A DNA stretch of 43,515 bases. It comes from an archaeon (GTDB lineage: Archaea > Nanobdellota > Nanobdellia > Woesearchaeales > UBA9642). The notes beneath the pieces were generated by a model. The model was not told where the DNA came from, ran no database searches, and saw only the letters and a list, made by a program, of their open reading frames with translations. The translations under genes and the position numbers were made by a program. Shown piece after piece: positions 7,422 through 40,288 of the stretch (position 1 is its first letter; each line of letters begins with the position of its first letter). The stretch lies in the NCBI GenBank assembly GCA_043806035.1, contig JAZDHK010000041.1, positions 1 to 43,515 of the forward strand, read 5' to 3'.

Positions 7422-7503
7422 GTCCCTAAAGTGACATTCAAGGGTCTATTTTTCCGGTTCTTTTAGCGAAAAATATATAAATTTCATGATACTTATGGAT
7501 ATT

Positions 7504-10844: not shown

Positions 10845-12038
10845 TTATTTGTTGCTCATAATCTCAATGACATCCAGATGCTGCAGCACATGATCCTTGC
10901 CTATGGGCAGGCGCTTCTTGACGTCCATAGCCTTCACGAAATTCTTTCCGAAATCAGTGTGTAATTTGTAGGCGAACTCGAGCGCAGTCGTCGTCCCGGG
11001 AAGCAAGAAGCAGTCAGGCAATACTCTGCCGTACTGGTCCTCTAGCTTGTGCATGCCGCCAGGGAATACTGCTTTATACTTCAGCAGTTCAAAGACGGCC
11101 CTGTTCAGCACGTCCTGCACCCCCGTAGACCCCCCCTGATCAAGAACAGTCGTCTTAATGAATGCGAGCGCTGCCTGCTGCTTGTCGCTGAGACTTCCTG
11201 TAATTTCGTAATTGTTCTCCCCAGGAACGTACTCAATGAGATTATGCTTTGCTGCTTCCTTTAATGCAAGCTCTGATTCTGCAGAAACAGGCACGATGAG
11301 ATACTCAGGAAATTCCTTTTGTAGCCGCTCATAATTCTCCTTGCCCGTGCTCACATCTATTTTGTTTGCGGCAATAATCATGGGCTTTGCCTTCTTCCTG
11401 AGCAAAGAGGCAAGATGATGCAAGTCATCCTCAGTCCATTCCAAAATTCTCCCTCTATCCAGCCGGAGCTTTTCGATGCTGTCTTTCACCATCAGCTCAT
11501 CAACACCCATTCCCGAAAGCTGCTTTGCTATTGCCCTGTCGACGTCAGCATGCTCCTGCTGCACTTGCCTCGAGAATCTCCCCCAGGTCTTTTTCATGAT
11601 ATCAAGATACCAAAAGTCAAGCTCCTCTTCAAGAAATTTGATGTCCTCCGTAGGATCCCTCGTTCCGGGTGGGACAGGTTCTCCCTTCTCGTTCGTGCTG
11701 CCAGAAACGTCAATGACGTGAATGAGCGCGTTCGCCATGTTCAGATCGGAAAGGAACTGGTTGCCCATGCCCTTGCCTTCATGGGCGCCAGGGACGAGGC
11801 CTGCTACGTCGATCATCTCTACAGGCACGAAGCGGTTGTGTTTGAGACAAAACCCTTCTCGAGGATTGCACTGCACCTTAAAAAAAGTGTCCACGCACGG
11901 GATCTTGACGTATCCTGCCCCCCTGTTCGGAGCTATAGTTGCAAAGGGATAATTCGCGATGAGCACTTCAGCCAAAGTTGTGGCCTTGAAAAACGTGCTC
12001 TTGCCTACATTTGCTTTTCCCACGACTCCTATGAGCAT
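10845..12038 (-). CDS. ychF: OBG-family translation-associated GTPase/ATPase (archaeal YchF/Ygr210 type)
   Basis: GKANVGKST, YPFAT, DVAGLVPGAHEGKGMGNQFL, NKID, and a C-terminal TGS domain (FAYKLHTD). Confidence 0.92.
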   Translation of the reverse strand: MLIGVVGKANVGKSTFFKATTLAEVLIANYPFATIAPNRGAGYVKIPCVDTFFKVQCNPREGFCLKHNRFVPVEMIDVAGLVPGAHEGKGMGNQFLSDLNMANALIHVIDVSGSTNEKGEPVPPGTRDPTEDIKFLEEELDFWYLDIMKKTWGRFSRQVQQEHADVDRAIAKQLSGMGVDELMVKDSIEKLRLDRGRILEWTEDDLHHLASLLRKKAKPMIIAANKIDVSTGKENYERLQKEFPEYLIVPVSAESELALKEAAKHNLIEYVPGENNYEITGSLSDKQQAALAFIKTTVLDQGGSTGVQDVLNRAVFELLKYKAVFPGGMHKLEDQYGRVLPDCFLLPGTTTALEFAYKLHTDFGKNFVKAMDVKKRLPIGKDHVLQHLDVIEIMSNK

Positions 12039-12107
12039 AAACAACAGCAAACGAGGACGGTATAAAAATGTTTCTGCGTATTGCTACTTTTTCATTTCAG
12101 CTAACTT

Positions 12108-12113
12108 TTTAAA
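12108..12113 (+). promoter_or_regulatory. TATA box of the giant phosphotransferase gene (probably leaderless)
   Basis: TTTAAA about 25 nt upstream of GTG 12136. Confidence 0.45.
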
Positions 12114-12135
12114 TGTACTGCCAAGAAAAAGAACC

Positions 12136-15100
12136 GTGTTCATCAAACCCTTCACTGCCTTAACTATGCGAGACGTTTCCATTGCCGGAGGCAAAGGTGC
12201 CTCTCTGGGAGAGATGCTGCAAGCAGGCATCCCCGTTCCCGACGGCTTTGTCATTCTTGCCAGCACATTCGACGTATTCCTCAAGACAAACAAACTCGAT
12301 GCCACCATAGCAGCCATTCTTGCAAAAACAGAACACGAAGAAACGGCAGCTGTAGAGGAATCATCAAGAAAGATACAGACACGTATCCTCAATGCGGCAA
12401 TTCCCAAAGGCATCCAAACGGAGATTACTGCAGCATTCGCGAAGCTTGACACGATGTACGTCGCCGTCAGAAGCTCAGCAACAGCCGAAGATTCCTCCAG
12501 CGCAGCCTGGGCGGGACAATTGGACAGCCATCTCAACACTACAAAAGCAACGCTCCTTGAGAATGTGAAGCGCTGCTGGTCCAGCCTCTTCACCCCCAGA
12601 GCCATTTTCTACAGGTTCGAACAGAAACTCGAGAACGAACACGTCTCCGTCGCTGTCGTCGTCCAAAAAATGGTGGAGAGCGAACGATCAGGCATAGCGT
12701 TCACCGTTCATCCAGTGACGCAGAACAGGCAAGAGCTGCTCATCGAAGCAGGCTACGGCCTTGGTGAGGCAATCGTTTCAGGGCAAGTGACGCCTGACAA
12801 CTACACCATTCTCAAAAATCTTACTATCAAGGAAAAGAATCTTGCCGAGCAGACACGGCAGATCGTCAAAGGACAGGACGGCGGCGTGATGTGGGTTCCA
12901 TGTACGAAACAAGGACAGACGCTCTCTGACAAGGAAATCATCGAACTCTCGCAAATACTCCTACGCATCGAAAAGCATTACGGCTTCCCCAGCGACATCG
13001 AATGGGCGTACGAGAAAGGAAAGTTCTACATCGTCCAGTCAAGGCCGATAACGACGCTCACACCAGAGGAACCAACCCCTGTTGTTCCCTCGGGGCAGGT
13101 TATGCTCACCAAAATATTCTCCCGACAGAAATCCCTGATGTACATGATGATGTGGGACATTTCTGAACGTATAGGATACAAGGATTTCATCAACTATGAC
13201 CTCAAGCACAGCGTCTTCATCTATGATGGGCTGACGAGAAAAACATCCGTATGGTATGACCTACAAGAAGCAGAGCACATCAAGCAATTGCTCTTTGCAA
13301 AAGTCAAGGCGGACAAGACCTTTGTTGGAAACATCATCGCAAGACTGGACAAGCACTGGAAGCTCATTTCACCTTATTTGCTGAAAAAGAGCAGCATACG
13401 CTCTATCAAAGAATTCGAGCAGTACTACTCGAACATCACGCAGTGGTGGTCGGCGATGAACACAGTCTATCCCTTGATCAACGATCCCGATCTCTCTCCT
13501 GCAGCAAGCAGGACGTTCCTGCTCTACCGAGAACGTACAGAACGCTACACGGGAGAGATGGACACTACCATCTGCAATTTTTGGAAAAAATTGCTCCATT
13601 CCGATTTGGCAGAATTTGTCCTTCTCGATGAGGCGATCAAACTCTCGAAAAAAGAGATTCCTGCAGAACGTAAATCGATAGAAGAGAGAAAACGAGGATT
13701 TGGCATCTACAAAGGCAAACTTTACACGCCGACGGCGCTGAAGCAACGTATGGAAGAGCAAGTCCTTTCTTTGCACAAGGTAGAAACGCAGAACGTGCAG
13801 CAATTTACAGGTGTTACTGCATTTAAGGGCAACGTGCGGGGGCGAGTGAAGAAAATCATCGTCCGAGAAGACATCCGTGACTTTCGGCAAGGAGAAATAC
13901 TCGTTGCAGAAACGACATTCCCCGATCACGTTCCCGCCATGAAGAAAGCTGCCGCCATCATCACGGACGAGGGAGGCATTACCTGCCATGCAGCGATAAC
14001 AGCAAGAGAACTCAAGATTCCCTGCATCATCGGGACAAAAATAGCGACGCAAACACTCAGCGACGGCGACCTCGTCGAAGTAGACGCCACCGCAGGCATC
14101 GTACGCATCCTGACTGAGCAAACGTCTTCTCTCGTCGACACGTTCATCGCAGATCAGCATGGTAAAGAGATCACAAAGCACGAAGGCAACTTCTCTCTTC
14201 TTGTCTGGGGGACGGCTGCATCGCTGCAATCAAGTCCACTCTACAAGAAATACTACGCTGGTGATTTTAGCAGTCTGCTTTTTCTCGTTGAAGAAAAACG
14301 TGGCATCGGCTTCTTCAACATGGACGCGTACAAGCGCTGCGCAGAACAGGCAATAGATCAATACGTGCACGATCGTTTTCCCTTACTTGATGCATGCAAA
14401 AAAATTTTCGTCACCATCAAAAAAATGTATGATACCTACACTACAGAGACGCTCAAGACGTTTTCGGGCAAAGCACTTGAACAGATTATCATTCTTGCAT
14501 TCCAGACCTGGCGTAATTTGCAAGTGCTCACCCTCTTCTGTGAGGCGCTCGATGAGCACATGGTTAAGGCATATGCTGATAAAGAAAAAATAAAGATTGA
14601 CATCAACAGTTTCTTTGAGCATGCGTCCCTGTGTGACTTCGAGGAATTCCTCGCTATACGAGATAGGGCTCTGCTCGAGGAGAAAAGACCCGCATGGGTG
14701 CTTTCTAGCTATCTCTTTACGCCGAAAGCGACACCTGCATTGATTAATCAACTGATCAAAGAATCAGGTGGGCAGAAGAAACTTCGAGAAGAACTGCAAC
14801 GCTCGCTCGACCAAACCAAGAAAAATAAACAGCGTTCTGCAGCGTACAGAACAACACTTTCTGGCAAAGTGTGCAAACTCTACGACTACGTCAAGACGGC
14901 CATTGCATTGCGGGACATGCGCAAGGCAGATACGTTCAAGAACATTGCAGTCCTCTCTGACAGTGTCAGAGAAATGTTCAAGCGCATGCATCTTGATGAA
15001 GAAAATATCATCTATGCTCGTGCAGAAGACTTTGAAGAGAAAACATACGAGAACAAAGACTATAATGCCCTTCTACAGAGGAGAAAGCACGGTGTTGCAG

Positions 15101-18100
15101 TCCTTTACAGTGCAGCTGTAACCAAGGAAGAATGTGTGCCTTTCGAGGAAACGCGAAACAAAATATTCTCAGTTCAGGATGCCGGAAAAGAAAAAGACGT
15201 TACGGGAAATTGCGCTTGTTCGGGGAAAGCACAAGGGGCAGCACGCATCATCCTGAGCAGCAAAGATTTCGAAAAATTCCAGCAAGGAGACGTTCTTGTC
15301 ACATCCATGACGAGACCTGAATTTGTCCCGCTCTTGAAGAAAGCGTCAGCCATCATCACCGACGAAGGGGGCATCACCTGCCACGCAGCAATCATCTCTC
15401 GTGAGTTAAAGATTCCTTGTATCATTGGCACTAAGCATGCAACACGCACAATTAAAGACGGTCAGCTGCTTGAGATTAATGCCTCTGCAGGAGTCGTGCG
15501 CATCATCGAGAACCAGCAGCAATGGACGAAGCTCTGGGAGGACAGGTCATACGGCCTTGGCATCGTCTGCAGCGCAGAAAATTCAGTAACAGAACAGTTC
15601 ACCAAACGGTTTGACGTCGCTATGCAACTTATTGTTATTAGATATGAGAACGGCAAAAGCTCCTGCTATTGTCTGACCAATGATTTGCGAGCAGGAGGAC
15701 AAAAGATCATCGCAAAAATCAGGACGAGCGACTTCGCAAAAAAGACAATAAACGAGGTTAGAGCAGAGACGGAGAAGCTGAAATCATCCATTTCCCCGAT
15801 ACTGGATATGGAATTGCAGAGCAAAAATTATGAGCAATTGACAAACATGTATCGTGACGTTTTGCAGCGCCTTGAAGAATTCTATGCGGTCGCATTCATC
15901 CCCATCTTCTTGGAGACGGGAGAGAACCAGCTCTCAGATGAGACAGAACGCATCATCAAAGAGGCACTCGCATGCGAGAAACGAGAAAAGGAATTTGCAG
16001 AAATCTTCACCGTACTGCTCACGCCAACGACTCCCTCAACCATCATGGAAGAAGAACTCGCCTTGCTCCGTACGCTCAAGCAACTACGCGGATCTCCCCA
16101 AGAAATACTGCAGAGCATCCTCGTCAAAAAACACATTCGTGATTGGTCCTGGATTAGCTTCAATTTCGTTGACAAGATAGAATGGGATGAGAGCGTCTAT
16201 GCGGACAGGATACGAAAGATACTGGCAGAGAAAAAAATCGATCAAAAAATGCGCGAAATCCTCGACTATTCAAAAACGATACAGAAAAAGCAAGAATCCA
16301 TTCTCAAGAGCATTCGCTTCTCAAAAGAGGAGTTAGCACTCATTACTGCAACACGTCAATTCGCTGAAGTGAAAGAATACCGGAAGAACATCATCACGCT
16401 ACTCTTCTACTGTTGTTTTATCATTCTCAAAGAATTGGCCAGCAAGAAGAAAAGATCTCTGCCGGATATGAACTTCCTCACTCCCAACGAGATAGCAGAG
16501 CAGAAATACACAGAGGCAAAGGAGAGAATGACGTATTCTGTCATCCTTGTCAAGGATGGCAAATCCACCATCCTCACTGGCGACACTGCGCGAAAGAAAG
16601 CAGAAGAACTGCAGCTTGACGCAGAAGAGAAGATTGCAAACGTCGATGAACTCAAAGGGACGCCCGCACAAATTGGAAACGCAAAAGGCACCGTGCGCAT
16701 CGTGAACTCATTTGCTGATGTCAAAAAAGTCCAGGAAGGAGATATTCTCGTGAGCATCGCGACGTTCCCTGACCTCGTACCTGCAATGAAAAGAGCGGGC
16801 GCCATCGTCACGGACGAAGGGGGAATGACCTGCCACGCTGCCATCATCTCCCGAGAGCTCAAGAAGCCCTGCATTATCGGGACGAAGATAGCGACGAAGG
16901 TGCTGCACGATGGTGATATTGTCGAAGTCGATGCAAATAACGGTCTTGTACGGCGAGTCACGGAAAAGAAAACGTTCACGAAATCATATACGAGAGACTT
17001 CTCCATCATCATGGAAGAGGCATGGTATCATGGCTGCACGAAAGGACTGCAGGACGTGTTCGGTTGGACGATGCAGCACCTGCCGTTCGCCATCTATTAT
17101 CTCAACCAAGGATCCATCGAGGTATGGGAGAATGAAAAAGCGCGTAAGGAACTGCTCGACCGCATCCTTGAAGCGAACAAAAAAACCGCATTCTTGCAGA
17201 ACGTCCAGAAGAAATACGCAGCACTGCTCAAGCAGCTAGAGCCATCCTGGAAAAAAGGATATGCGGAGAATCTTCCTGCATTCGCGCAATCCCTTTTTGC
17301 CATCATGCCTTACTTCGTCGTCCAATACTACACTGCACTTGATGAACGAACCCCTCCTGCTATTCGGAAATTGGCGCTTGGCATGCGCAACACCGACGTC
17401 TTGTTCGATTGTTGCGACAAGATAATCAGGACATCGTTACTCGGAAAATCCATCATCAGAGGAGTTGAGACCTGCGTGCTTGAAAAAGAGCTTGAAAAGA
17501 TCCCTCCACCAAACGTTCTTGAGGAGAGAAAGAAACATTTCGTCGTCATTCCCGGAACGGTTGAAGCATGTCTGCCTCTAGAAAAATATGTAGAACAGAA
17601 TCCTACCGTACAACTCGTGCACACCAAAGGAGATTTTGACGGGCAACGATTGCAGGGCACGTGTGCATTCAAAGGCAAGGCGTCAGGAACAGTCCGTATA
17701 CTAAGAACCAAGGACCAGATAGCGCTTATTCAGGAAGGGGACGTGCTTGTCTCGCCCATGACCACTCCTGACTTTCTGCCTGCCATGAAGAAGGCAGCTG
17801 CCATCATTACCGATGAGGGAGGGATAACGTGCCATGCAGCTATCACTGCCCGTGAGCTCAAGAAGCCAACGGTCGTTGGCACGGAAATAGCGACACACGT
17901 ACTCAAGGACGGCATGTACGTTGAAGTTGACGCAGATAACGGGCTGATTCTTTTGCAAAAAGGCCAAGACAATGCACAAAATAATGCATTCACGAAACTT
18001 GTCGAAGAAGTCAAGCAAACACCCATGGACATCCAGAAAGCACAAGGAAACATCTGCGGACCAGACCTCGTGTTTCCCGTGTACGCATCAGCATCCATAC

Positions 18101-20862
18101 TTCCAGGAACGGCATACCCGCTCCAGCTCGGATACGTAAAGGAACTACACTTCCTCCAAATGACTCCCGTAACAGCATTAGCCAACCTCACACGCTCGTT
18201 ACGGACGATGATGAACACTCCTGAACGCTTTGACGCCATTCTCAAAAACGCGCACAAGGCAGCAGAACAGATGGATGCCGCATGGGCTGACTATCAACGA
18301 AACGGCTTCAGCAGCAAAACGTTCGACACGCTCATAACAAACATACGTGCATTCTGGCAGTACGGCATCCTCGGAGAGGATAAGGGTGCATTCCTCGAAT
18401 CCATACTCATCCCCCTTCTTGTCAAAAATCACGAACTTACTCAGAACGAGGCGCACAGCCTGCTCTCCGCACTCACCCATCCAGAAAGACCAGCATCATT
18501 CAGCAAGGAACGTCTCGATTTTTACAACTTGTGCCTTTCTGTCTCATCACTACAGGATACGCAGAGCAGTACAGCAAATGCACTCTGCAACAAACCATTG
18601 CTCACGAAACTGAACCGATACGTGACGGAATACTTTTTCAAAGACACGAACTTTGTCGACAGAAAAATAGTCACTCCAGAAAGCGTCTTGGCAGATATAC
18701 AGAAAGAGCTGCACGACATCAACGCCGTTCGCCAATCCCGCAAGGAAATACTCAATGGATTTGTTACGGTACGAAAAGAAAGAGAACACGCCACAAAAAA
18801 ATACACCTTCAGCGTAGAGGAAAGAAAGAAACTGGCATTTGCCCAAACATTCATCAGCTTTGTTGACGAGCGAAAAGAAGCAATGATGAAAACATTCTAC
18901 TACTTCTTCTCTGCCATTCATGACATTTGCGACAAACTCCATTTGTCCTATGCTGATGTGCAGTGGTTGACGGTCGATGAAATTCGTGCAATCCTGAATG
19001 AAAATATGCAGTTCGAACTAACGCGTGTACAGCAACGAAAACAGGGAACGATGCTCGTCTACTATCCAGGAAAACCCGTAATCATTTACACAGGAGGGCA
19101 GGCAGAGGCACTCTATGCCGTGTCGCAACATGAAGTGTACGAGGCAACCGTGAAAGGAATGGTTGCAAGCCCAGCAAAAGATGGAAAACGCATCAGAGGC
19201 AGAGCACGAATCATCACGAACCCTTCAACAAGCACATTCAACAAAGGAGACGTGCTTGTCGCAAGCATGACACGTATAGAGTTCGTGCCGCTCATGAAGA
19301 AAGCAGCAGCCATCATCACGGATGAGGGAGGCATTGCCTGTCATGCAGCCATTGTCTCCAGAGAATTAAACATTCCCTGCATCATCGGCACGAAAAATGC
19401 AACGCAAGCGCTCAAGATCGGAGACCTTCTCGAGGTGGACACAACGACGGGCAGGGTACACGTAATCGAGCGAAAAACAGACATGCAAGAACTACACGAA
19501 CGCGTTGCATCAACAGCATGGTACAGGCAAGGAGGATCCTTGCTGCCGTTCTTCATCAGCACGCCCTACCAATGCGTGTATCAGGCATGGGGGCAGGATG
19601 CTGGATTCATCATCCAGCAAGGCATGGACAACATCGCATACTTCAACAAAAGCATAGAGAAGGAAAAACTCGATGAGGCAATAGCAGCATCCCTTGAAGA
19701 CAAGCAGTTCTTGCAGAAAAAGATGAAGGAATGGAGAGTTCTCGTGCGACTGCAGCAAGAAGAACTCAACATGCTGCTGCAGGAACCTACACGAGACATT
19801 CGTGCGTTCGTCAAGGCAACCATCGATGCCTGGGCAGCAACGCTCTTCATCGAAGAAACTGATCCCTGGGGGGATATCGTCCTGCACGACTATCTGCGCA
19901 CGTATGGTGTTTCAGACAAAGAGCTTGCCATACTCACCTCTCCCAAACACTACGGCTACCTGCAACAGGAAGTGCTTGATTTCTGGAAAGCAGTCGAGAA
20001 GGGAGGGGCTCTCAAAAAACATCACGCAACGTATTCCTGGTATTTGGCGTCATGGCTGCACGCCCCGCAACTCACTGAAGAACACTTCCTTGGCAGATTG
20101 CACAAGAAAGGAAAAGTGGGCATACGCAAAGAAGCCAACACCATACGCAAACACCGCCAGGAGACGGAACGGCAGCGGCAGCACCTTCTCAAAAAATATG
20201 CGTTCGACACAAAAACTCGGCGTGTGCTCGACTACTTCAGAACACTGAACGACTGGCGTGATGAACGGAAAAGAGAACTTGTCTGCAAGACAAACACCCT
20301 TCTCGATCAGCTCATCCACCGAGTGTGCATGTTGAACGCCATTCCCCTGCAGGAAGCAAAACACCTTGCCTTCTTCGAAATCAGCAGTCTCCTCCTTACC
20401 GAACAGTACAAGGAAGAGCTGAAGAAGAGAAACCAACAATCGTACGCGTACTGGCAAGACACGCCCGGACACTACACGTATTTGTGTGGGGCAGAGGCAG
20501 AACAGCTCAAGGCAGCCCTCGAGGAAGCCCTCAAAAGTGCACAAAAGGACCTCTGCGGCAGGCCAGCCTATCCAGGAAAAACTCAAGGAATAGTCAGAAT
20601 CATCAATGCGCCCGCTGACTTTTCAAAGATGAATCCTGGAGACATTCTCGTTTCGGTCATGACCCGCCCTGAACTCGTCCCTGCGATGAAAAAGGCAGGA
20701 GCGATTATCACTGATGAAGGAGGCATTACCTGTCACGCTGCCATCATCTCCCGAGAGCTCAAGATTCCGTGCATTGTCGGCACGCAATTAGCAACCACCA
20801 TACTGAAAGACGGAGATGTCGTAGAAGTCGATGCTATGCAGGGCAAAGTTCACAAACTATAG
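12136..20862 (+). CDS. Giant modular PEP-utilising-family phosphotransferase: PPDK_N ATP-grasp domain plus 6 x [acceptor-like domain + phospho-His swivel]
   Basis: N-terminal GGKGASLGEM, VAVRSSATAED, VVVQKMV and DIEWA...QSRPITT. Six TDEGGxxCHAAI motifs with His codons at 13987, 15382, 16834, 17833, 19342 and 20734. No C-terminal PEP-binding TIM barrel. Start placed at GTG 12136 (2908 aa) because the track start overlaps ychF. Confidence 0.9.
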   Translation: MFIKPFTALTMRDVSIAGGKGASLGEMLQAGIPVPDGFVILASTFDVFLKTNKLDATIAAILAKTEHEETAAVEESSRKIQTRILNAAIPKGIQTEITAAFAKLDTMYVAVRSSATAEDSSSAAWAGQLDSHLNTTKATLLENVKRCWSSLFTPRAIFYRFEQKLENEHVSVAVVVQKMVESERSGIAFTVHPVTQNRQELLIEAGYGLGEAIVSGQVTPDNYTILKNLTIKEKNLAEQTRQIVKGQDGGVMWVPCTKQGQTLSDKEIIELSQILLRIEKHYGFPSDIEWAYEKGKFYIVQSRPITTLTPEEPTPVVPSGQVMLTKIFSRQKSLMYMMMWDISERIGYKDFINYDLKHSVFIYDGLTRKTSVWYDLQEAEHIKQLLFAKVKADKTFVGNIIARLDKHWKLISPYLLKKSSIRSIKEFEQYYSNITQWWSAMNTVYPLINDPDLSPAASRTFLLYRERTERYTGEMDTTICNFWKKLLHSDLAEFVLLDEAIKLSKKEIPAERKSIEERKRGFGIYKGKLYTPTALKQRMEEQVLSLHKVETQNVQQFTGVTAFKGNVRGRVKKIIVREDIRDFRQGEILVAETTFPDHVPAMKKAAAIITDEGGITCHAAITARELKIPCIIGTKIATQTLSDGDLVEVDATAGIVRILTEQTSSLVDTFIADQHGKEITKHEGNFSLLVWGTAASLQSSPLYKKYYAGDFSSLLFLVEEKRGIGFFNMDAYKRCAEQAIDQYVHDRFPLLDACKKIFVTIKKMYDTYTTETLKTFSGKALEQIIILAFQTWRNLQVLTLFCEALDEHMVKAYADKEKIKIDINSFFEHASLCDFEEFLAIRDRALLEEKRPAWVLSSYLFTPKATPALINQLIKESGGQKKLREELQRSLDQTKKNKQRSAAYRTTLSGKVCKLYDYVKTAIALRDMRKADTFKNIAVLSDSVREMFKRMHLDEENIIYARAEDFEEKTYENKDYNALLQRRKHGVAVLYSAAVTKEECVPFEETRNKIFSVQDAGKEKDVTGNCACSGKAQGAARIILSSKDFEKFQQGDVLVTSMTRPEFVPLLKKASAIITDEGGITCHAAIISRELKIPCIIGTKHATRTIKDGQLLEINASAGVVRIIENQQQWTKLWEDRSYGLGIVCSAENSVTEQFTKRFDVAMQLIVIRYENGKSSCYCLTNDLRAGGQKIIAKIRTSDFAKKTINEVRAETEKLKSSISPILDMELQSKNYEQLTNMYRDVLQRLEEFYAVAFIPIFLETGENQLSDETERIIKEALACEKREKEFAEIFTVLLTPTTPSTIMEEELALLRTLKQLRGSPQEILQSILVKKHIRDWSWISFNFVDKIEWDESVYADRIRKILAEKKIDQKMREILDYSKTIQKKQESILKSIRFSKEELALITATRQFAEVKEYRKNIITLLFYCCFIILKELASKKKRSLPDMNFLTPNEIAEQKYTEAKERMTYSVILVKDGKSTILTGDTARKKAEELQLDAEEKIANVDELKGTPAQIGNAKGTVRIVNSFADVKKVQEGDILVSIATFPDLVPAMKRAGAIVTDEGGMTCHAAIISRELKKPCIIGTKIATKVLHDGDIVEVDANNGLVRRVTEKKTFTKSYTRDFSIIMEEAWYHGCTKGLQDVFGWTMQHLPFAIYYLNQGSIEVWENEKARKELLDRILEANKKTAFLQNVQKKYAALLKQLEPSWKKGYAENLPAFAQSLFAIMPYFVVQYYTALDERTPPAIRKLALGMRNTDVLFDCCDKIIRTSLLGKSIIRGVETCVLEKELEKIPPPNVLEERKKHFVVIPGTVEACLPLEKYVEQNPTVQLVHTKGDFDGQRLQGTCAFKGKASGTVRILRTKDQIALIQEGDVLVSPMTTPDFLPAMKKAAAIITDEGGITCHAAITARELKKPTVVGTEIATHVLKDGMYVEVDADNGLILLQKGQDNAQNNAFTKLVEEVKQTPMDIQKAQGNICGPDLVFPVYASASILPGTAYPLQLGYVKELHFLQMTPVTALANLTRSLRTMMNTPERFDAILKNAHKAAEQMDAAWADYQRNGFSSKTFDTLITNIRAFWQYGILGEDKGAFLESILIPLLVKNHELTQNEAHSLLSALTHPERPASFSKERLDFYNLCLSVSSLQDTQSSTANALCNKPLLTKLNRYVTEYFFKDTNFVDRKIVTPESVLADIQKELHDINAVRQSRKEILNGFVTVRKEREHATKKYTFSVEERKKLAFAQTFISFVDERKEAMMKTFYYFFSAIHDICDKLHLSYADVQWLTVDEIRAILNENMQFELTRVQQRKQGTMLVYYPGKPVIIYTGGQAEALYAVSQHEVYEATVKGMVASPAKDGKRIRGRARIITNPSTSTFNKGDVLVASMTRIEFVPLMKKAAAIITDEGGIACHAAIVSRELNIPCIIGTKNATQALKIGDLLEVDTTTGRVHVIERKTDMQELHERVASTAWYRQGGSLLPFFISTPYQCVYQAWGQDAGFIIQQGMDNIAYFNKSIEKEKLDEAIAASLEDKQFLQKKMKEWRVLVRLQQEELNMLLQEPTRDIRAFVKATIDAWAATLFIEETDPWGDIVLHDYLRTYGVSDKELAILTSPKHYGYLQQEVLDFWKAVEKGGALKKHHATYSWYLASWLHAPQLTEEHFLGRLHKKGKVGIRKEANTIRKHRQETERQRQHLLKKYAFDTKTRRVLDYFRTLNDWRDERKRELVCKTNTLLDQLIHRVCMLNAIPLQEAKHLAFFEISSLLLTEQYKEELKKRNQQSYAYWQDTPGHYTYLCGAEAEQLKAALEEALKSAQKDLCGRPAYPGKTQGIVRIINAPADFSKMNPGDILVSVMTRPELVPAMKKAGAIITDEGGITCHAAIISRELKIPCIVGTQLATTILKDGDVVEVDAMQGKVHKL

Positions 20863-31291: not shown

Positions 31292-33514
31292 TTATCCCAC
31301 AACAATCGTGCTCATGATTGTCCCCGCGACGAAGTTGAAGATCAAGGAGACGATGAGCGCAAGCACGGTGTAGAGAATGCTGGACATGATCATGTTCTGG
31401 CCAAGCATGTACTTCTCTGAGAGCGGATCAGCACCATTCTGGATGCCATTGATGAGAATAGTCAATAAATAGACGATCTGCACCACGTACAAGCCAACAA
31501 TGATTTGGAAATAGAACATCGGTACGCCATTGCCGAACATGCCCAGCAGGCTGGCGCCCGCAACGTTATCGGACTGCTGTGCGGTCAACAGTTTCATCTT
31601 CGTCGACAAATCGCCCAAAATGGTCGTGATCATTGATGTGATGCCCACAACGATGCCTGCAATGGCAGGAGTTAAAAAACTAATTTGGGATTTCATGCTG
31701 CTGATGATGTCTGCCATCAAGTCTTTTAAGCGTTCGTCCACGCGGTGCATTTCCTTGATGTACTGACTCACGTTAATGAGCGCCTGCGATGCCACTAACG
31801 GTCCTTTCCGTATAGATTCAGTGAGCACTTTCATGCTGCTCTCTATCAGGCTGCTGGGATAGCTCGTGAGGCTGCCGTGCTGCGGGTCAAAGATGGCCTG
31901 CTCGATATTATACCCCAAGGTGGTAATGTTATTGGACGTAAGTCTGAAGAAATCCCCAGAAACTGTTCCTTCCATGACCTTCGCCACTTTCGTCACGGCA
32001 ATCTCCACAGGCATGCCATCTCCCAGTCTGTTGCCGAGCTGAAAGAGCGCAGAGGCAAATTCTTCCTCGAGCCGTTTTGCATTCTCACGAATTTTGATGA
32101 CGTTCTGGCTACGCAGCTTAAAGTACAAGCCTATGCTGAGGCCTATGCTCAGCGGAACGAACATGCCCAGAATACCCGCACCCAGACCGAACGGACCTAT
32201 CTCCTGTTCTGTCGCATCATCCAACCGGTAGCCGAGAAAGTAGAACGTCGCTTTCGGATCAGTATACTCGGTAATAACCACTAATTCTCCATCCACCATG
32301 GCAAGATCATGCTTCGGATTTGCGGCATGGATGATGAGCGGACTGATGCCTATGGCGAACAGCACGAGAAAGACGATGATGCTGAAGAATAACGGATTGA
32401 TCCGCAACTCAATATCGCCAAGCTTGACGCCCACATTCCTGTACTTTTTCAGCTCTGGGTTGTCCTCGGAAATGTCCGACTCACCGTATCCCGTGGGTCG
32501 CGTGGAGAGGATGACCTTGGCAAGGTAGAACACGCCGATAGGCAAGAGGATGTTGTACAGTGTGAAGATATGATACCAGGCAACTCCCTCCATGAACGAG
32601 ACGAGCAAGGGCAGCACAACTAACCCGAGAATGGGGAGGATGATGCCCATCATATGCAGTGTCGTCAATGGACCCTTGAGGTTGTGCGCGTAGTGCAGCA
32701 TGCGCTCGTACGTCTCGTCGAGAATAACGCTTAAGCTCTTGTCCAGTGCATTGAGGCGCCTGCCTTCCTCTGGCTCGTACAGGGAACTCTCGATGAGGTG
32801 CATGCTTTCAATGAACTCCATGTTCCACTTCTTCCAGGAATCCAGATAGGTGTCGAGGCTCTCCTTGACGGAATCGAACTTCTCTGTCTCCACATTCCAC
32901 AGCACTTTTTTCATGTCCAGACTCATGGGCGGGGCGAGATGCTCTGCGGCAAAACCAATAGCGTTTTCTAGATTTGAGGAATGTCGCATGTACGTGACCA
33001 CGTAAAAGACGCAGAGCACCATCTGGTTGCTTGCTTTCATCCGCCAATTGTTAGCGAGAAAGTACGCCATCTTGGAGAGCGGCATGATCATGATGAGCCC
33101 CACCAAAACGCCAAAGCCGACGAAGAACATGCTGCTGAACTCACCTTGCGTCAAAACGTAGGGGATGGCATAGCCGAAGAGCACGCTCAGCATGATGAAC
33201 AGTGTCGGGAAGAGGATGGCGAAGCTTTTCACACCCGTGGGCGTGATGTTGAGATGGCAAATACCTATAGCTTCCTCCAGCTCGGGAAGTTCTTTCTTGT
33301 CCGGCTGGATGGGCATGATCTTCTCGGCGATATTGCACCATTTTTCGTAGAGGGAATGATGCAGCGGTGCATAGGTCTTCCTGAACTCCTCATATTCTCT
33401 GGATATTGCCTCGTCTTCGTGCGTCTTGCCCAGTTCCTGCTCGAGCTTCTTTTTTACACGTGCCTTGAATGCCTTGATGCTGGCATCCTCTACTTTGCGT
33501 TCTTTTTCAGCCAT
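31292..33514 (-). CDS. Type IV pilus/T2SS membrane platform protein (TadB/TadC-, ArlJ-like)
   Basis: Polytopic 740-aa protein with two cytoplasmic domains (e.g. EFASALFQLGNRLGDGMPVE). Overlaps the upstream secretion ATPase. Confidence 0.75.
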   Translation of the reverse strand: MAEKERKVEDASIKAFKARVKKKLEQELGKTHEDEAISREYEEFRKTYAPLHHSLYEKWCNIAEKIMPIQPDKKELPELEEAIGICHLNITPTGVKSFAILFPTLFIMLSVLFGYAIPYVLTQGEFSSMFFVGFGVLVGLIMIMPLSKMAYFLANNWRMKASNQMVLCVFYVVTYMRHSSNLENAIGFAAEHLAPPMSLDMKKVLWNVETEKFDSVKESLDTYLDSWKKWNMEFIESMHLIESSLYEPEEGRRLNALDKSLSVILDETYERMLHYAHNLKGPLTTLHMMGIILPILGLVVLPLLVSFMEGVAWYHIFTLYNILLPIGVFYLAKVILSTRPTGYGESDISEDNPELKKYRNVGVKLGDIELRINPLFFSIIVFLVLFAIGISPLIIHAANPKHDLAMVDGELVVITEYTDPKATFYFLGYRLDDATEQEIGPFGLGAGILGMFVPLSIGLSIGLYFKLRSQNVIKIRENAKRLEEEFASALFQLGNRLGDGMPVEIAVTKVAKVMEGTVSGDFFRLTSNNITTLGYNIEQAIFDPQHGSLTSYPSSLIESSMKVLTESIRKGPLVASQALINVSQYIKEMHRVDERLKDLMADIISSMKSQISFLTPAIAGIVVGITSMITTILGDLSTKMKLLTAQQSDNVAGASLLGMFGNGVPMFYFQIIVGLYVVQIVYLLTILINGIQNGADPLSEKYMLGQNMIMSSILYTVLALIVSLIFNFVAGTIMSTIVVG

Positions 33515-35757
33515 TCATTCCACGCGAAGAATATTCTTTTGGTATCCATACTGCCGACATCTTCCTTGACCTGATTGCTGATCTTGTGGAAGGCATCATT
33601 CGCCTGTATCACAAATTCTGCCTCGAGCAGCTCGGGATTGTTCAGCCGCTTGCTCGTACTCAGCAGTTCTTCCTTCGTCTTCGCACGAAGGAGGATGTTC
33701 TGCCACACGGCATCCCAGTTGCCCGCCCATTCCTTGACATTGCCCGCTATGCTCTTGATGATCTCAGAATCGCCGTTGATGAGTGCATCAGTCGGTTCGA
33801 GGCTGTCTTTCTTCGCATCATACTTCATCAAGTCAACAAAGCCACCTTCTGCCAACGGATTATCTTCCCATTTCTTGCGTACTTCCGTAATCTGCGTCAC
33901 ACGCCTCCAGCGGTGCAGGCCATCTGCGCTCTTCACAGGATTAGCCACGATGATAATGTCCGTTGCCTTGAAACTCGTCTTGGGTACCTCAAGATCATTC
34001 ACCACCCTATCATACACGCCGTACGGCGAGTCACCGTGAATAGTGCCTGCAACGACATTCGCCAATGCGCCCACACGCATGGCCTCGTACAACGCTTTTG
34101 CTTCCGTGCTTCGCACTTCGCCGATGATCAGGCAGCTGTCTCCCAGTCGCAGCGTCGTCCGGATGCCCACGTCGGCAGGCACTTCGCTCGTGCCCTTGCT
34201 CAATGCTCCCGCTACTTTCATCTGCTGAATGTTATAGCCCAGCTTTTGCAATGCCTCGCTCGGCAATTCCAACGTGTCTTCAATGGTGAGAATCCTGTAC
34301 TTGCGCATAATCTCCACCATGACGCTGCCCAGCAATGACGACTTGCCTGCGCTTCTCGTCCCTGCAATGAGCAACGTCCTGCTGCCATCGACGAGGAAAC
34401 TGATGAGGCCCGCACCGAGCGGCGTAAGCATGTTCTGCTTGATGAACAATGGCAGCGTCCACGGCTTGTTCCTGTGCCTCCTGAACGCGTACGCAATACC
34501 TGTCGGATTGAGGGGATCGGAGATGACGCCCACTCTTGCGTTCGCAACGCCAGGAATGACGACTTCCGTGTCCAATATGGGATTTGCCTCGTCTAATGGT
34601 CTGCCGGAAATGAGTCTAAGCTTGCTCGCCCAACTCTCCGCATCCTTCGTCGTCGAAAAAATGTTCGTCCGGCAATCATCATAATCGGCATGGACGATGA
34701 AGATAGGGCTGCTGCCAGAAGGGCTATTGATGGTGATGTCCTGCACCTTCTCGTCAGCCAACAGAACCTCAATCAACCCGAAGCCCACCGTGTACCTGAT
34801 GAGAATGTCTGTGAGTTCTTCCAATTCGCGCTCGCTGAGCTGCACCTTCTTGTAGTCGGCAAGCTCCTCGAGCAAATCCCTGCCCACATTGCTGAAGACT
34901 TCCCGCATGCGCTTGGGATCGATGAACTCCTGCTTGTCCGGCTTGTGCTCTGACAGGATCTTCCTTGCCGTGTCGAGGATCTCATATTTTTCCTCGCTCA
35001 GCTTGAACTCAGGAGGCATGATGTGATAGAGCAGCTGTACACTGTCCGGCAGCTTGAAGATAACGACCTCAGTGGATCCTATCATGTAATTATCAATTTC
35101 CTCTCCTTTCTTGGGATACTGGGCCATGAGTCGAGTAAACATGAAATCTGGCTTGATGCTCGGCGTGAAAATATTCCTGTACACATCCCTGTCCCCCAGC
35201 TTATGCCCTGCAAGATACGGGGCCGCGAGCTGGATGATCTTCGTCTTCTCCAGCAACTGCGTGGTGTAGTCCAGCATGCTCATGTACTTGTGGATGAAAC
35301 CAGCATAGTCCTGGTCTACCGTGCGTTCCATCTCTATCTTTTCACGACGGAGAATCCTGCGCAGTTCCACATAGCAGTCGAGCGGACTGCGCTTCAGCAC
35401 CACGTATAGCAGGTTCTGCAATTCTGTATACCTTTGCGCAGCCAACGTCGCAAATCGTGCACTGGCAATGTTCTGGTAGCTGAAAATCTGCTTCTGCTTC
35501 AGCAGCGTGTTGAGCAGGCGAGCGATCTCGATGAGCAATGATGTCTGCGCATAATCGTACTCGTACTCGCGCTTCTGCGTGAAGATGATACGGGTAACGC
35601 TGAGATTCTGTGCAAGATACTCCACCGTCCTGCTCATCAGCTCAGGGCTATCCTCGAGGCTCGGCGCAGAAGGGTATTTCTCGCAATCGACGAGCAGCGT
35701 GCTGTCTTCCCCCTCACGTACAATCTCATATGATGTATCCCTGGAAAACAAGCCCAT
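33490..35757 (-). CDS. Type II/IV secretion ATPase (CpaF/VirB11/ArlI family)
   Basis: Walker A AGTRSAGKS, Asp box TIEDTLEL, Walker B LIIGEVR and His box GTIHG. Confidence 0.9.
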   Translation of the reverse strand: MGLFSRDTSYEIVREGEDSTLLVDCEKYPSAPSLEDSPELMSRTVEYLAQNLSVTRIIFTQKREYEYDYAQTSLLIEIARLLNTLLKQKQIFSYQNIASARFATLAAQRYTELQNLLYVVLKRSPLDCYVELRRILRREKIEMERTVDQDYAGFIHKYMSMLDYTTQLLEKTKIIQLAAPYLAGHKLGDRDVYRNIFTPSIKPDFMFTRLMAQYPKKGEEIDNYMIGSTEVVIFKLPDSVQLLYHIMPPEFKLSEEKYEILDTARKILSEHKPDKQEFIDPKRMREVFSNVGRDLLEELADYKKVQLSERELEELTDILIRYTVGFGLIEVLLADEKVQDITINSPSGSSPIFIVHADYDDCRTNIFSTTKDAESWASKLRLISGRPLDEANPILDTEVVIPGVANARVGVISDPLNPTGIAYAFRRHRNKPWTLPLFIKQNMLTPLGAGLISFLVDGSRTLLIAGTRSAGKSSLLGSVMVEIMRKYRILTIEDTLELPSEALQKLGYNIQQMKVAGALSKGTSEVPADVGIRTTLRLGDSCLIIGEVRSTEAKALYEAMRVGALANVVAGTIHGDSPYGVYDRVVNDLEVPKTSFKATDIIIVANPVKSADGLHRWRRVTQITEVRKKWEDNPLAEGGFVDLMKYDAKKDSLEPTDALINGDSEIIKSIAGNVKEWAGNWDAVWQNILLRAKTKEELLSTSKRLNNPELLEAEFVIQANDAFHKISNQVKEDVGSMDTKRIFFAWNEWLKKNAK

Positions 35758-35844
35758 ATCCTACACCCTCTTTTGGTGAAATCTCGTGGGCGGCGTATTT
35801 AAATTTTTGCAAACGTTTATAAACAAAAAGTCCTCACGCACTGC

Positions 35845-36198
35845 ATGGGTGGGAAGGTGATGCACAAGCGGCAGCATACACGACGAACAGCAGTATCCCT
35901 CACTGCAGATCATGAAAAACGCCTGCATGCGGCAAAGCACGGGCATGCGCACGTTCCTCGGGAGCATCATCTGCCGCTTGGCAGATACGTCTCATTTATC
36001 CTGTTGTTCGGTGCAGTACTCGTCGTATTTCTTCTCCTGATTCTTCCCGTGGCCATTTCTCCTGCTGATCAGTTCGGCTGCGAAGTGAGTCAAACCTGCA
36101 ACACGTACTGCAAGCAACTCGGTCTCAGCACGGGCAATTGTAAAGTCGTCGATGAGCGAGACCAGTACGACTGGCTCGTCTGCGCCTGTGTGACGTGA
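35845..36198 (+). CDS. Membrane-anchored protein with C-terminal CSab (defensin-like) six-Cys domain
   Basis: His/Arg-rich N-terminus, one TM helix, then FGC-x5-C-x3-C-x7-GNC-x13-CAC. TTTATAAA about 22 nt upstream. Confidence 0.6.
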   Translation: MGGKVMHKRQHTRRTAVSLTADHEKRLHAAKHGHAHVPREHHLPLGRYVSFILLFGAVLVVFLLLILPVAISPADQFGCEVSQTCNTYCKQLGLSTGNCKVVDERDQYDWLVCACVT

Positions 36199-36584
36199 TG
36201 CGCGTGGCCGATGATCCTTTTGTAGCAATCATTGCCAGCGTCAATGAACTAGACCGTAGGCTGAAAGGGCTCGAGAACAAGTACTTCGGGCTGCGCAAAC
36301 GAACAGAGGCGACCGAAGAGAACATGGTCGAGCTGGAGAAGACGATGTACAAGGACGTGCGCAGCGTCAACGATGACGTCCTGGACATCAAGACGCAGCT
36401 CCAGGAGCTCAAGGAGAAGATCGAGCTCTTCACCGCAGAATTCAAGACCGTCGCCAACAAGTACGACCTCAAAGAAACAGAGGCATACCTGCACTTGTGG
36501 CAACCGATCGATTTCGTGAGAAAGGACGAGCTCAGGGCCGCGCTCAACCAATTGCGCATGCGCCTCGAATCAAAACAGAGCTGA
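36198..36584 (+). CDS. Coiled-coil hypothetical protein
   Basis: Heptad-rich with C-terminal YLHLWQPIDFV; translationally coupled to the upstream gene. Confidence 0.7.
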   Translation: MRVADDPFVAIIASVNELDRRLKGLENKYFGLRKRTEATEENMVELEKTMYKDVRSVNDDVLDIKTQLQELKEKIELFTAEFKTVANKYDLKETEAYLHLWQPIDFVRKDELRAALNQLRMRLESKQS

Positions 36585-37867: not shown

Positions 37868-40288
37868 ATGGATAAGAGCAAAGAGTTCATTCTCTGGTTT
37901 GACCAATTAGGCATAGACGACATTCCTTTCGTCGGCGGCAAGAACGCCAGCCTAGGCGAGATGTACAGAAATCTGAGCGGCAAGGGTGTGCGCGTGCCCA
38001 ATGGCTTCGCCATTACTGCATTTGCCTACAGATACTTCCTCGACAAGGCAGGACTGGCACAGAAGATACGTGATGAACTGCAGACACTCGATGCCAACGA
38101 CCTGCACCTGCTCGAGCAGAAAGGCCATGTCGTGCGGCAACTCCTCCTCAACGCAACCTTCCCTCACGAACTGCAAACCGTCATCCTCGAGGCGTACAGG
38201 AACCTATGCGGTGCCTACAGCAAAGAACGGCACGACGTCGATGTCGCTGTGCGCAGCTCAGCAACGGCAGAAGACCTTCCTGACGCGAGCTTTGCAGGAC
38301 AGCAGGAAACGTATCTTAACATCAAAGGCGACTACCAGATCCTTGATGCGGTCAAGCGATGCTTTGCCAGCCTCTTCACCAACAGGGCCATCAGCTACCG
38401 GCAGAACAAGGGCTTCGATCACTTCTCCATTGCCTTAAGTTGTGGCGTCCAGAAAATGGTGCGTTCTGACAAGGCATGCAGCGGCGTCATGTTCACGCTC
38501 GACACCGAATCGGGATTCGGCGACGTCGTGCTCATCACGGCAGCATACGGCCTCGGCGAGAACGTCGTGCAAGGCGCCGTCAACCCTGACGAATATTACG
38601 TGTTCAAGCCGACGCTCAAGAAAGGGTTCAAGGCAATCATCAGCAAGCAGATAGGCACGAAAGAGCAGAAAATGGTCTACACGCACGGCGGGCCAAAGCC
38701 AACGAAGAACGTCAAGGTCGCCTTCGAGGACAGGAAGAAATTCTCTCTGGCTGATGACGAAGTGCTCCAGCTCGCAACGTGGGGCTGCATCATCGAAGAC
38801 CATTACAGCCAGAATGCGGGCAAGTGGAAACCCATGGACATCGAATGGGCGAAAGACGGCGAGAGCAACGAGCTCTTCATCGTCCAGGCACGGCCAGAAA
38901 CCGTGCAGAGCAGGAAGAACAGGAACGTCTACGAGAATTACGAGCTCAAGCAGCGCGGAACAGTCATTGCAGAAGGCAAGAGCGTAGGAAACAAGATAGG
39001 CCAGGGCCCTGCACACATTATCAAGGACGTCCACGAAATCGAGCAGTTCAAGAAAGGAGAAGTTTTAGTTACGGAAATGACCGATCCTGATTGGGAGCCC
39101 ATCATGAAGATAGCCTCTGCCATCGTCACGAACAAGGGAGGCAGAACCTGCCACGCAGCCATTGTCTCCCGAGAACTCGGCATACCCTGCGTCGTCGGCA
39201 CCATCACGGGAACGGGACACATTAAGGACAAGCAGGACATCACCGTTAGTTGTGCGGAAGGGGATATCGGCTACGTCTATGATGGGAAGCTTCCGTTCGA
39301 GATAAAACAAACAAACCTCGACCACATCCCCAAGACAAAAACAAAAATCATGATGAACGTTGGCAATCCCGAGGAAGCGTTCAACTTCAGCTTCATCCCC
39401 TGCGAGGGAGTTGGGCTTGCCAGAGAGGAGTTCATTATCAACTCCTACATAAAAATCCATCCTAAAGCACTCATGCACTTTGACACGCTCAAGGACCCGC
39501 ACGTGAAACACATAATCAACATACTCACGCACGGCTACGCGAACAAGGCAGACTACTTTGTTGACAAGCTCGCCTACGGCGTCGCACTCATCGGCGCAGC
39601 ATTCTACCCCAAAGATGTCATCGTGCGCATGTCAGACTTCAAGAGCAATGAGTACGCGAACCTTATCGGCGGCAGAGAGTTCGAGCCCGTCGAGGACAAT
39701 CCCATGATCGGCTGGCGAGGCGCCTCCCGCTACTACAGCGACTACAAGGACGCCTTCGCATTGGAATGCAAGGCCATGAAGAAAGTCAGGGATGAACTGG
39801 GATTGACAAATGTCAAGCTCATGGTGCCCTTCTGCAGGACGCTGGACGAGGCGAGGAAGGTCATCGCGGAAATGGAACATGCAGGACTGAAGCAAGGCCA
39901 GAACGGCCTGCAGATCGTGTGCATGTGCGAAATCCCCAGCAACGTTATCCTCGCCGACGAATTCCTCAGCCTCTACGACGGATTCTCCATCGGCAGCAAT
40001 GACTTAACACAGCTCACGCTAGGATTGGACAGGGACTCTGCACTCGTCGCAGACATCTACGACGAACGAAACCCCGCCGTACAGAAACTCATCAAGCAAG
40101 TCATCGACGTCGCCAACAGGCGAGGCAAGTACATCGGCATTTGCGGGCAAGGACCATCAGACCATGAGGACTTCGCGCAGTTTTTAGTTGAGTGCGGCAT
40201 CACATCCATAAGCCTGAACCCGGACACGGTCATCAAGACAACACTGAAGATCGCGGAGAAGGAGAAGGCGCTCGGTATTGCACCATAA
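37868..40288 (+). CDS. ppsA: Phosphoenolpyruvate synthase (pyruvate,water dikinase)
   Basis: VGGKNASLGEM, RSSATAEDLPDASFAGQQETYLN, GGRTCHAAI, EDNPMIGWRGASRY, SIGSNDLTQL and GICGQGPSD; full three-domain enzyme. Confidence 0.97.
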   Translation: MDKSKEFILWFDQLGIDDIPFVGGKNASLGEMYRNLSGKGVRVPNGFAITAFAYRYFLDKAGLAQKIRDELQTLDANDLHLLEQKGHVVRQLLLNATFPHELQTVILEAYRNLCGAYSKERHDVDVAVRSSATAEDLPDASFAGQQETYLNIKGDYQILDAVKRCFASLFTNRAISYRQNKGFDHFSIALSCGVQKMVRSDKACSGVMFTLDTESGFGDVVLITAAYGLGENVVQGAVNPDEYYVFKPTLKKGFKAIISKQIGTKEQKMVYTHGGPKPTKNVKVAFEDRKKFSLADDEVLQLATWGCIIEDHYSQNAGKWKPMDIEWAKDGESNELFIVQARPETVQSRKNRNVYENYELKQRGTVIAEGKSVGNKIGQGPAHIIKDVHEIEQFKKGEVLVTEMTDPDWEPIMKIASAIVTNKGGRTCHAAIVSRELGIPCVVGTITGTGHIKDKQDITVSCAEGDIGYVYDGKLPFEIKQTNLDHIPKTKTKIMMNVGNPEEAFNFSFIPCEGVGLAREEFIINSYIKIHPKALMHFDTLKDPHVKHIINILTHGYANKADYFVDKLAYGVALIGAAFYPKDVIVRMSDFKSNEYANLIGGREFEPVEDNPMIGWRGASRYYSDYKDAFALECKAMKKVRDELGLTNVKLMVPFCRTLDEARKVIAEMEHAGLKQGQNGLQIVCMCEIPSNVILADEFLSLYDGFSIGSNDLTQLTLGLDRDSALVADIYDERNPAVQKLIKQVIDVANRRGKYIGICGQGPSDHEDFAQFLVECGITSISLNPDTVIKTTLKIAEKEKALGIAP

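Follow-up and report, generated by a model that had tools for sequence, protein, structure and literature searches.

We have analyzed a short open reading frame (ORF) located at positions 35845-36198 on the forward strand of contig JAZDHK010000041.1 (assembly GCA_043806035.1), from a DPANN archaeon of the order Woesearchaeales. The window is this whole contig of 43,515 nucleotides (contig C41), and the genome has 1.5 Mb in 42 contigs and is 93.7% complete. On sequence evidence the ORF is a real gene with a very narrow distribution. We regard as evenly balanced the proposal that its product, P0001, would be a type II anchored protein exposing at the cell surface a binding module similar to the cysteine-stabilised alpha-beta (CS-alpha/beta) domains, with three disulfides. 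The CS-alpha/beta-like fold of its six-cysteine domain is, judging from the models, probable in its own right. In the arrangement that we propose, a basic, His-rich N-terminal tail of about 40 residues would remain in the cytoplasm, the protein would be held in the membrane by a single helix of strong hydrophobicity and the C-terminal 40 residues would stand outside the cell as a cis-defensin or scorpion-toxin-like mini-domain. The VKOR/DsbA-type oxidation system of the cell itself would make the three locking disulfides, and the domain, small and rigid, would serve to bind a ligand carried by a partner cell or present in the envelope. This lineage would have acquired the gene by an insertion just ahead of a conserved coiled-coil gene, with which it would be co-transcribed.

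The ORF and its parts are the following, P0002 being the one homolog of P0001:

35816..35823, + strand: TATA-box-like element TTTATAAA, its centre about 26 nucleotides upstream of the first ATG
35845..36198, + strand: the ORF, 117 amino acids (P0001), stop codon included in the range
35845..35976, + strand: N-terminal tail, residues 1-44, net charge +6 without counting His, nine His, predicted to be cytoplasmic
35977..36054, + strand: hydrophobic helix, residues 45-70 as delimited by AlphaFold 2 (AF2), interpreted as a signal anchor or a transmembrane segment
36055..36075, + strand: linker ISPADQF, residues 71-77, with a candidate signal-peptidase-like site after S-P-A and before D, recognised by eye only
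36076..36195, + strand: six-cysteine domain, residues 78-117, 40 amino acids, 23 of the 40 identical in P0002
36196..36200, + strand: TGATG, the stop of the ORF and the ATG of the following gene sharing one base

The first-pass annotation, produced by a model from the letters alone, had placed the ORF and the peptide FGCEVSQTCNTYCKQLGLSTGNCKVVDERDQYDWLVCAC (residues 77-115, at 36073-36189) at these same positions. It had also described a single transmembrane helix ahead of a net acidic domain with the CS-alpha/beta signature C...CxxxC...GxC...CxC, and all of this was borne out by our analysis. The best 19-residue Kyte-Doolittle window covers residues 49-67 of the helix, with a mean hydropathy of 3.23. 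The computed net charge of the domain (GCE...VT) is -2, or -3 if counted by hand from D75, and that of the P0002 domain is 0. The cysteines are residues 79, 85, 89, 99, 113 and 115, spaced C-x5-C-x3-C-x9-C-x13-C-x-C and including G97-N-C99 and C113-A-C115; neither P0001 nor P0002 has any cysteine outside the domain.

The evidence that the ORF is a gene comes in the first place from its homolog. When 1.84 billion representative proteins were searched exhaustively with phmmer (threshold E <= 0.001), two matches to P0001 emerged, designated P0002 and P0003, of which P0002 alone is a true homolog. It has 109 amino acids and is encoded on a 3.4-kb metagenome contig; the match has an E of 6.9e-27, and the identity is 48% over residues 21-116, 47% over the whole protein and 50% over the domain. 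Both proteins have tail, helix and domain in the same order. The first-pass annotation had staked its reading on the cysteine spacing being kept in homologs: in P0002, the sole one, the six cysteines and the Gly of GxC (G97) are invariant and the spacing is identical. The other residues kept in the domain (GCEVSQ, YCKQ and GL.TG) are located in its helix and turn. Outside the domain, 15 of the 39 tail residues from 6 to 44 are identical, including H11, H28, H36, H41 and H42, and so are 13 of the 26 residues of the hydrophobic helix. The linker is not kept and reads VVSSSYA in P0002. A second in-frame ATG at 35860 (Met6), following a GGTG-rich stretch, aligns with the start of P0002 and may be the true start, giving a protein of 112 amino acids. 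Between Met6 and the helix there is no further in-frame start codon (ATG, GTG or TTG); the tail being conserved and without a later start, it is therefore translated and selected.

We considered whether the ORF could be a chance intergenic frame, and find this hardly credible. It is short, the region has about 54% G+C and antisense ORFs of 69-190 amino acids overlap the area. Against this, P0002 preserves the domain order and every cysteine, the TATA-like box is suitably spaced, and the last base of the stop codon already belongs to the start codon of a conserved gene. Given the general architecture of archaeal promoters, the position of TTTATAAA indicates that the mRNA would be leaderless or have a very short leader. 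At the other end, the TGATG overlap points to co-transcription and translational coupling with the coiled-coil gene, as far as can be read from the DNA. Two other studies supplied short contigs that agree letter for letter with the window over 35730-35880, 35975-36125 and 36344-36506, so that a single faulty assembly does not account for the sequence. By comparison of G+C contents (ORF 54%, coiled-coil gene 54%, ATPase gene on the other side 53%, whole window 48%), the ORF did not appear foreign in composition relative to its neighbours.

The distribution of the gene is very restricted. A word-index search of 5.8 billion proteins gave only the query when P0001 was used and only P0001 and P0002 when alignment A1 was used. 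A locus search with A1 yielded 34 pattern matches in genome contigs and 84 in metagenome contigs, none of which was confirmed. Copies in relatives were sought at 80 related loci of the adjoining ATPase gene (see below), in 40 relatives, in 400 genomes of the class and in 400 of the order. The six-frame searches of these three genome sets found no copy and gave weak matches only. Eleven of these weak matches were inspected and rejected, being transmembrane segments alone, one M3-peptidase-like ORF, or frames containing stops.

P0003, a eukaryote-like repeat protein of 606 amino acids, was rejected as a relative since its match is confined to the His-rich tail (residues 27-49). This segment, HAAKHGHAHVPREHHLPLGRYV (35923-35991), resembles the repeat motif of the Helicase-associated family (HA, PF03457) with a Pfam E of 0.11, and P0003 is itself an HA-repeat protein, its phmmer E of 1.7e-5 being summed over five stretches. 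The likeness is probably due to chance, though part of the segment is kept in P0002.

The cysteine motif by itself is weak evidence, since as a pattern it does not exceed chance. Read in six frames, the 1.5-Mb genome has five matches to the regular expression for the full motif, three of them in non-coding-looking Cys-rich frames, one in an ORF of 2921 amino acids and one being the ORF studied here. In the same way, a looser expression gave four chance matches in the 80 related loci. It is the conservation of the cysteine spacing in P0002 that places the ORF above the level of chance. The match in the 2921-amino-acid ORF (contig C20, around position 1805, minus strand) is a compact six-cysteine motif of its own, CADTECDLDCGTLTGTCQDSACVC, with spacing C-x4-C-x3-C-x6-C-x4-C-x-C, and fits the CS-alpha/beta expression.

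Structure prediction agrees with the signature. In the domain, a helix is predicted at residues 82-91, a strand at 96-105 and a second strand at 108-116. AF2 reached a predicted local distance difference test score (pLDDT) of 68 for the whole protein and of 73.2 for residues 72-117 alone, the latter model having its helix at model residues 11-20 and its strands at 25-34 and 37-45. In both AF2 models C85xxxC89 lies in the helix, G97xC99 in the first strand of the hairpin and C113xC115 in the second. The model of the ESM Atlas, a different predictor, also has a helix followed by a beta-hairpin. When the domain model was compared with the PDB by Foldseek, 48 of the 50 matches listed were CS-alpha/beta proteins by their entry titles, the other two being enteropeptidase. 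Scorpion toxins, plant, insect, fungal and bacterial defensins and brazzein were represented among the matches listed, with TM-scores by query of 0.35-0.57 and E >= 0.8 throughout, and matches of the same kind were obtained with the model of the whole protein. The AlphaFold and Foldseek comparison proposed by the first-pass annotation thus returned what it had expected, helix and hairpin with defensins and scorpion toxins as nearest structures, at weak scores. VIA-align, which depends neither on Foldseek nor on sequence, was run over 48,161 representative chains. Its ranks 1-19 were all CS-alpha/beta proteins, headed by the plant defensin NsD7 (Z 4.5, root-mean-square deviation, rmsd, 1.9 A, 38/46 residues), and unrelated folds such as POTRA domains began at Z 2.9. 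The clusters nearest to the ESM Atlas model were plant defensin-like proteins, gamma-thionins, actinobacterial 'arthropod defensins' and scorpion alpha-toxins (TM-score by query 0.59-0.71); the ESM Atlas search by features gave no usable match. We consider the structural scores to be about the ceiling that can reasonably be expected for a domain of 40 residues, none of them being significant alone.

Profile hidden Markov models (HMMs) of the known families gave concordant matches, all of them sub-threshold:

Gamma-thionin (PF00304): P0001 at E 0.015, 16 bits; cut-off 25.1; below it
Defensin-like (PF24552): E 0.056, 13.9 bits; cut-off 27; below it
Actinodefensin (NF038042): E 0.0015, 19 bits, over profile positions 30-61; cut-off 65; the best-scoring HMM, below it
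Scorpion Toxin_2 (PF00451): E 0.034, P0002 only; sub-threshold

Both members match PF00304 weakly, at E of about 0.02. When four defensin models were scanned over the six frames of the whole genome, the locus of the ORF was the top genome match for three of the four. A profile of the P0001 and P0002 domains aligned with the scorpion toxin OSK1 without gaps over the first four cysteines, with a shared C-x5-C-x3-C-x9-C, at E 0.19. From these comparisons the sequence looks like a CS-alpha/beta domain, and common descent with any described family is unsupported by a significant match.

The orientation of the protein in the membrane can be deduced from its charges. With +6 in the tail against -2 in the domain, an N-in, C-out topology is predicted, placing the domain outside the cell. 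As for the disulfides, two VKOR homologs in the genome score over the Pfam cut-off and there are several matches to DsbA/Thioredoxin_4, components of a system that makes disulfides outside the cytoplasm; disulfides outside the cell are therefore plausible, and three of them, expected as C1-C4, C2-C5 and C3-C6 in the CS-alpha/beta superfamily, would form in the domain. The VKOR and DsbA/Thioredoxin_4 genes were found at C4:10521-10874, C26:21573-21881, C33:65335-67716 and C27:30400-30867. The DsbA/Thioredoxin_4 genes are clustered, and one of their ORFs, of 587 amino acids, has two such domains. This set of VKOR and DsbA/Thioredoxin_4 genes suggests a substantial extracytoplasmic disulfide chemistry in such a small DPANN genome. 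Further large Cys-rich ORFs exist in the genome. We favor retention in the membrane over release because the N-terminal tail is conserved, the helix is long and strong and no start codon lies nearer to it. Because the domain would be tethered and is acidic to neutral, a binding module is likelier than a diffusible cationic antimicrobial.

Several points weigh against the reading of P0001 as an anchored CS-alpha/beta-like module. Every family HMM scored below its cut-off, control genomes likewise yield sub-threshold matches to defensin HMMs, and the model of the plectasin family, Defensin_2 (PF01097), had no match at E <= 10 in the six-frame search of the genome. The Foldseek E values of 0.8 or more and the best VIA-align Z of 4.5 are low, and the latter tool warns that Z < 8 may mean a common arrangement only. 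Both models were built without an informative alignment, and the predictors may key on the cysteine motif, so the evidence for the fold is not independent of it. With 13 residues, the loop between the fourth and fifth cysteines (C4-C5) exceeds that of the best-matching scorpion toxins and defensins. The family has two members, which makes tests of covariation and selection impossible. Many Woesearchaeota are thought to be anaerobic, and extracellular disulfides are less certain for that reason. Finally, in the whole-protein search of the ESM Atlas, helix and domain together (residues 41-113 and 53-117) align to precursors made of a signal peptide plus a defensin, which fits a cleaved precursor equally well.

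A further alternative is that the domain is a mimic, with a motif that the predictors recognise, and in truth another mini-domain, rich in disulfides or binding metal, within a small membrane protein that is restricted to this lineage and may have arisen de novo from intergenic DNA. We consider this unlikely, though not negligible. Besides the sub-threshold scores, it is favored by the five places that the regular expression alone matches in the genome, by a family of two among 1.84 billion representatives, by models derived from a single sequence (pLDDT 68-73) and by the location of the gene within an expanded gap (438 nucleotides, against a median of 162 in relatives). On the other side, the two predictors agree on the secondary structure and the cysteine pairs fall where a CS-alpha/beta fold needs them. 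The sequence-free search of 48,161 chains has only CS-alpha/beta proteins in its top 19, and three separately built HMM families rank the locus best in the genome. The domain also has conserved non-Cys residues in helix and turn, and lacks any CxxC or His pattern of the sort usual in zinc sites.

The main rival to the anchored module is a cleaved, secreted precursor. The helix would then be a long leader, cut near S-P-A/D75 (S-Y-A/G in P0002) and releasing a defensin-like peptide of about 40-43 amino acids with three disulfides, an archaeocin-type factor of competition. We hold this to be improbable, though it deserves serious weight. The released peptide would match known defensins in size, small residues stand at -3 and -1 before the domain in both proteins (by eye), and the precursors aligned by the ESM Atlas include plant DEFL and nematode ABF ones. 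Bacterial defensins carry leaders too, and those of actinobacteria are cut at an acidic residue (PMC8819291). In our proteins, however, the linker bearing the putative site is not conserved, and the peptide released would be acidic (-3) or neutral, which sets it apart from most antimicrobial defensins. Moreover, measured against the typical dimensions of signal peptides, an n-region of 39-44 residues and a stretch of about 23-26 residues at a hydropathy of 3.2-3.3 are atypical of a cleaved Sec signal peptide. The conservation of the tail, including its five His, suggests that it has retained a function. The locus itself offers no adjoining immunity, transporter or processing gene, the neighbors being conserved housekeeping or apparatus genes.

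Those apparatus genes surround the ORF as follows:

31292..33514, - strand: polytopic membrane protein, 740 amino acids, downstream of the ATPase gene and beside it in 73 of the 80 loci, with no Pfam match
33490..35757, - strand: FlaI/TadA/VirB11-type secretion or pilus ATPase, 755 amino acids, divergent to the ORF and 60-70% identical in the 80 Woesearchaeota-type loci
36198..36584, + strand: coiled-coil protein, about 128 amino acids, listed from GTG 36195 as 129 amino acids, with no transmembrane segment seen

The polytopic protein is probably the platform protein of the apparatus. The coiled-coil gene was found in 48 of the 80 ATPase loci, and in 46 of them it is the divergent upstream neighbor of the ATPase gene. 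This protein of about 129 amino acids has no Pfam family and may be an undescribed conserved partner of the ATPase apparatus.

From this neighborhood the ORF could be taken for a dedicated part or accessory of the type IV pilus or secretion apparatus, for instance a tip adhesin or an assembly factor. It lies 87 nucleotides from the divergent ATPase gene and is coupled to the coiled-coil gene that accompanies this ATPase gene in 48 of the 80 loci. The comparison of related loci speaks strongly against such a role, which we consider very improbable. The ORF is missing from all 80 related ATPase loci, and none of the 46 divergent pairs has an ORF with a transmembrane segment and a Cys-rich domain in the gap between the ATPase and coiled-coil genes. 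This gap has a median of 162 nucleotides in the 46 loci (over 250 in ten, and over 400 in four of these ten); here it measures 438 (35757 to 36195) and is filled by the ORF. No class III (pilin) signal is found in P0001, in which 44 residues precede the hydrophobic helix. Being absent from the related loci, the ORF is therefore a recent, lineage-specific insertion ahead of the coiled-coil gene and not a conserved part of the apparatus; its adjacency to the ATPase gene is positional and not conserved. The first-pass annotation had seen in P0001 a surface-displayed recognition or adhesion module, perhaps associated with the pilus, and had suggested a search for homologs near type IV pilus loci of DPANN genomes. 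The search found none in the 80 loci or in the genomes of relatives, class and order described above, and the pilus link is not supported. The surface display stands as a prediction from the charge distribution.

We have compared the anchored CS-alpha/beta-like module with the known proteins of this fold. The bacterial cis-defensins (actinomycesin and actifensin of Actinomyces, and the myxobacterial peptides) have, like P0001, six cysteines in the order C..CxxxC..GxC..CxC, on a helix and a hairpin that in P0001 are predicted. Actinomycesin (2ru0) is among the Foldseek matches to P0001. Actinodefensin gave the best-scoring HMM, yet with 19 bits against a cut-off of 65 P0001 is not a member by sequence. 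P0001 also fits the regular expression CX(2,18)CX(3)CX(2,12)CX(4,17)CXC with which a survey searched for bacterial defensins (PMC11561630). The differences are marked: bacterial cis-defensins are cationic and have a short leader, whereas P0001 has a tail of 44 residues and a transmembrane helix, an acidic domain with a C4-C5 loop of 13 residues, longer than theirs, and an archaeal host. The same can be said of antimicrobial defensins at large. Their mature peptide is net cationic, whereas the domain has -2 (-3 from D75) in P0001 and 0 in P0002, and in place of their short signal peptide P0001 has the tail, followed by about 26 residues of hydrophobic helix, with a cleavage site that is putative and recognised by eye.

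The short-chain scorpion K+-channel toxins (alpha-KTx such as OSK1, Toxin_2 family) have their first four cysteines spaced as in P0001. Many of them are found among the structural matches, and P0002 matches Toxin_2. The likeness to P0001 and P0002 is not significant (E 0.19-0.3). About 4 residues lead to the last strand in these toxins, against 13 in P0001, and the toxins are basic and secreted, unlike the acidic domain of P0001, which would be anchored. The plant defensins or gamma-thionins (PF00304, PF24552) gave the best superpositions (NsD7 Z 4.5, Ah-AMP1 4.2, PsDef2 4.1), with HMM scores below the cut-off. Plant defensins have eight cysteines and an extra N-terminal strand, whereas the P0001 domain has six cysteines and no first strand is predicted in it. 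With plectasin, P0001 shares F-G-C at the first cysteine (QFGC), and the plectasin derivative 9e3v was matched by VIA-align (Z 2.9, rmsd 1.6 A over 30 residues). In lipid II binders of the plectasin type the conserved N-terminal (G)FGC segment contributes to pyrophosphate binding, and the first-pass annotation had taken the FGC of P0001 as a mirror of it. P0002, however, reads YAGC at this place, so that only G-C is invariant and the argument is weak. The n-loop of plectasin has about 10 residues (5 in P0001), and to this must be added the missing match of its family model and the acidity of the P0001 domain.

A characterised archaeal peptide of this fold was not known to the first-pass annotation, and our full-text literature searches turned up none either; the supplementary tables of two defensin-mining papers, which were outside the searches, could list archaeal matches. 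In the papers searched, the fold is reported only from eukaryotes and a few bacteria. Cis-defensins were long held to be eukaryotic, and bacterial members have been recognised recently and discussed as possible ancestors, as stated in PMC8819291 and PMC11561630. The former describes the bacterial ones as restricted to actinobacteria and myxobacteria. A total of 74 bacterial defensins is reported by the 2024 survey, which discarded candidates with transmembrane segments by design (PMC11561630); proteins like P0001 would therefore be missed by such a mining pipeline. The word 'Archaea' occurs zero times in the main text of PMC8819291 or PMC11561630.

It is conceivable, although doubtful, that P0001 carries the first archaeal cis-defensin (CS-alpha/beta) domain and also the first naturally membrane-tethered one. 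A DPANN episymbiont would then display this toxin- or defensin-type knot on its surface and, on contact, bind or block some component of the host envelope, for instance a channel or a cell-wall precursor linked to lipid. If this were true, the range of the fold would be extended to the third domain of life, which bears on the origin of defensins. Confirmation of the fold would by itself reveal an archaeal, membrane-anchored and non-cationic use of the scaffold, with a long C4-C5 hairpin; failing such confirmation, P0001 would be no more than a small membrane protein of this lineage. Defensin specialists would be surprised by a tethered CS-alpha/beta domain in an archaeon, and the case for it consists of two sequences and predicted structures. 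The biology of DPANN archaea depends on cell-surface contacts, and a domain of 40 residues can be synthesised for binding tests.

The remainder of the window contains ordinary housekeeping genes, among which two observations can be added. An ORF of 2967 amino acids (11959-20859, + strand) has an unusual giant architecture, with one PPDK_N (ATP-grasp) domain, six 'mobile' phosphohistidine domains of the phosphoenolpyruvate (PEP)-utilising type and a match to Epimerase_2, and a normal PEP synthase of 806 amino acids is found at 37868-40288. Farther upstream, an ORF of 75 amino acids (7486-7710, + strand) matches DUF7557 and a VapB-type antitoxin. It is overlapped by an ORF of 112 amino acids without family (7695-8030), and the two may be a toxin-antitoxin pair.

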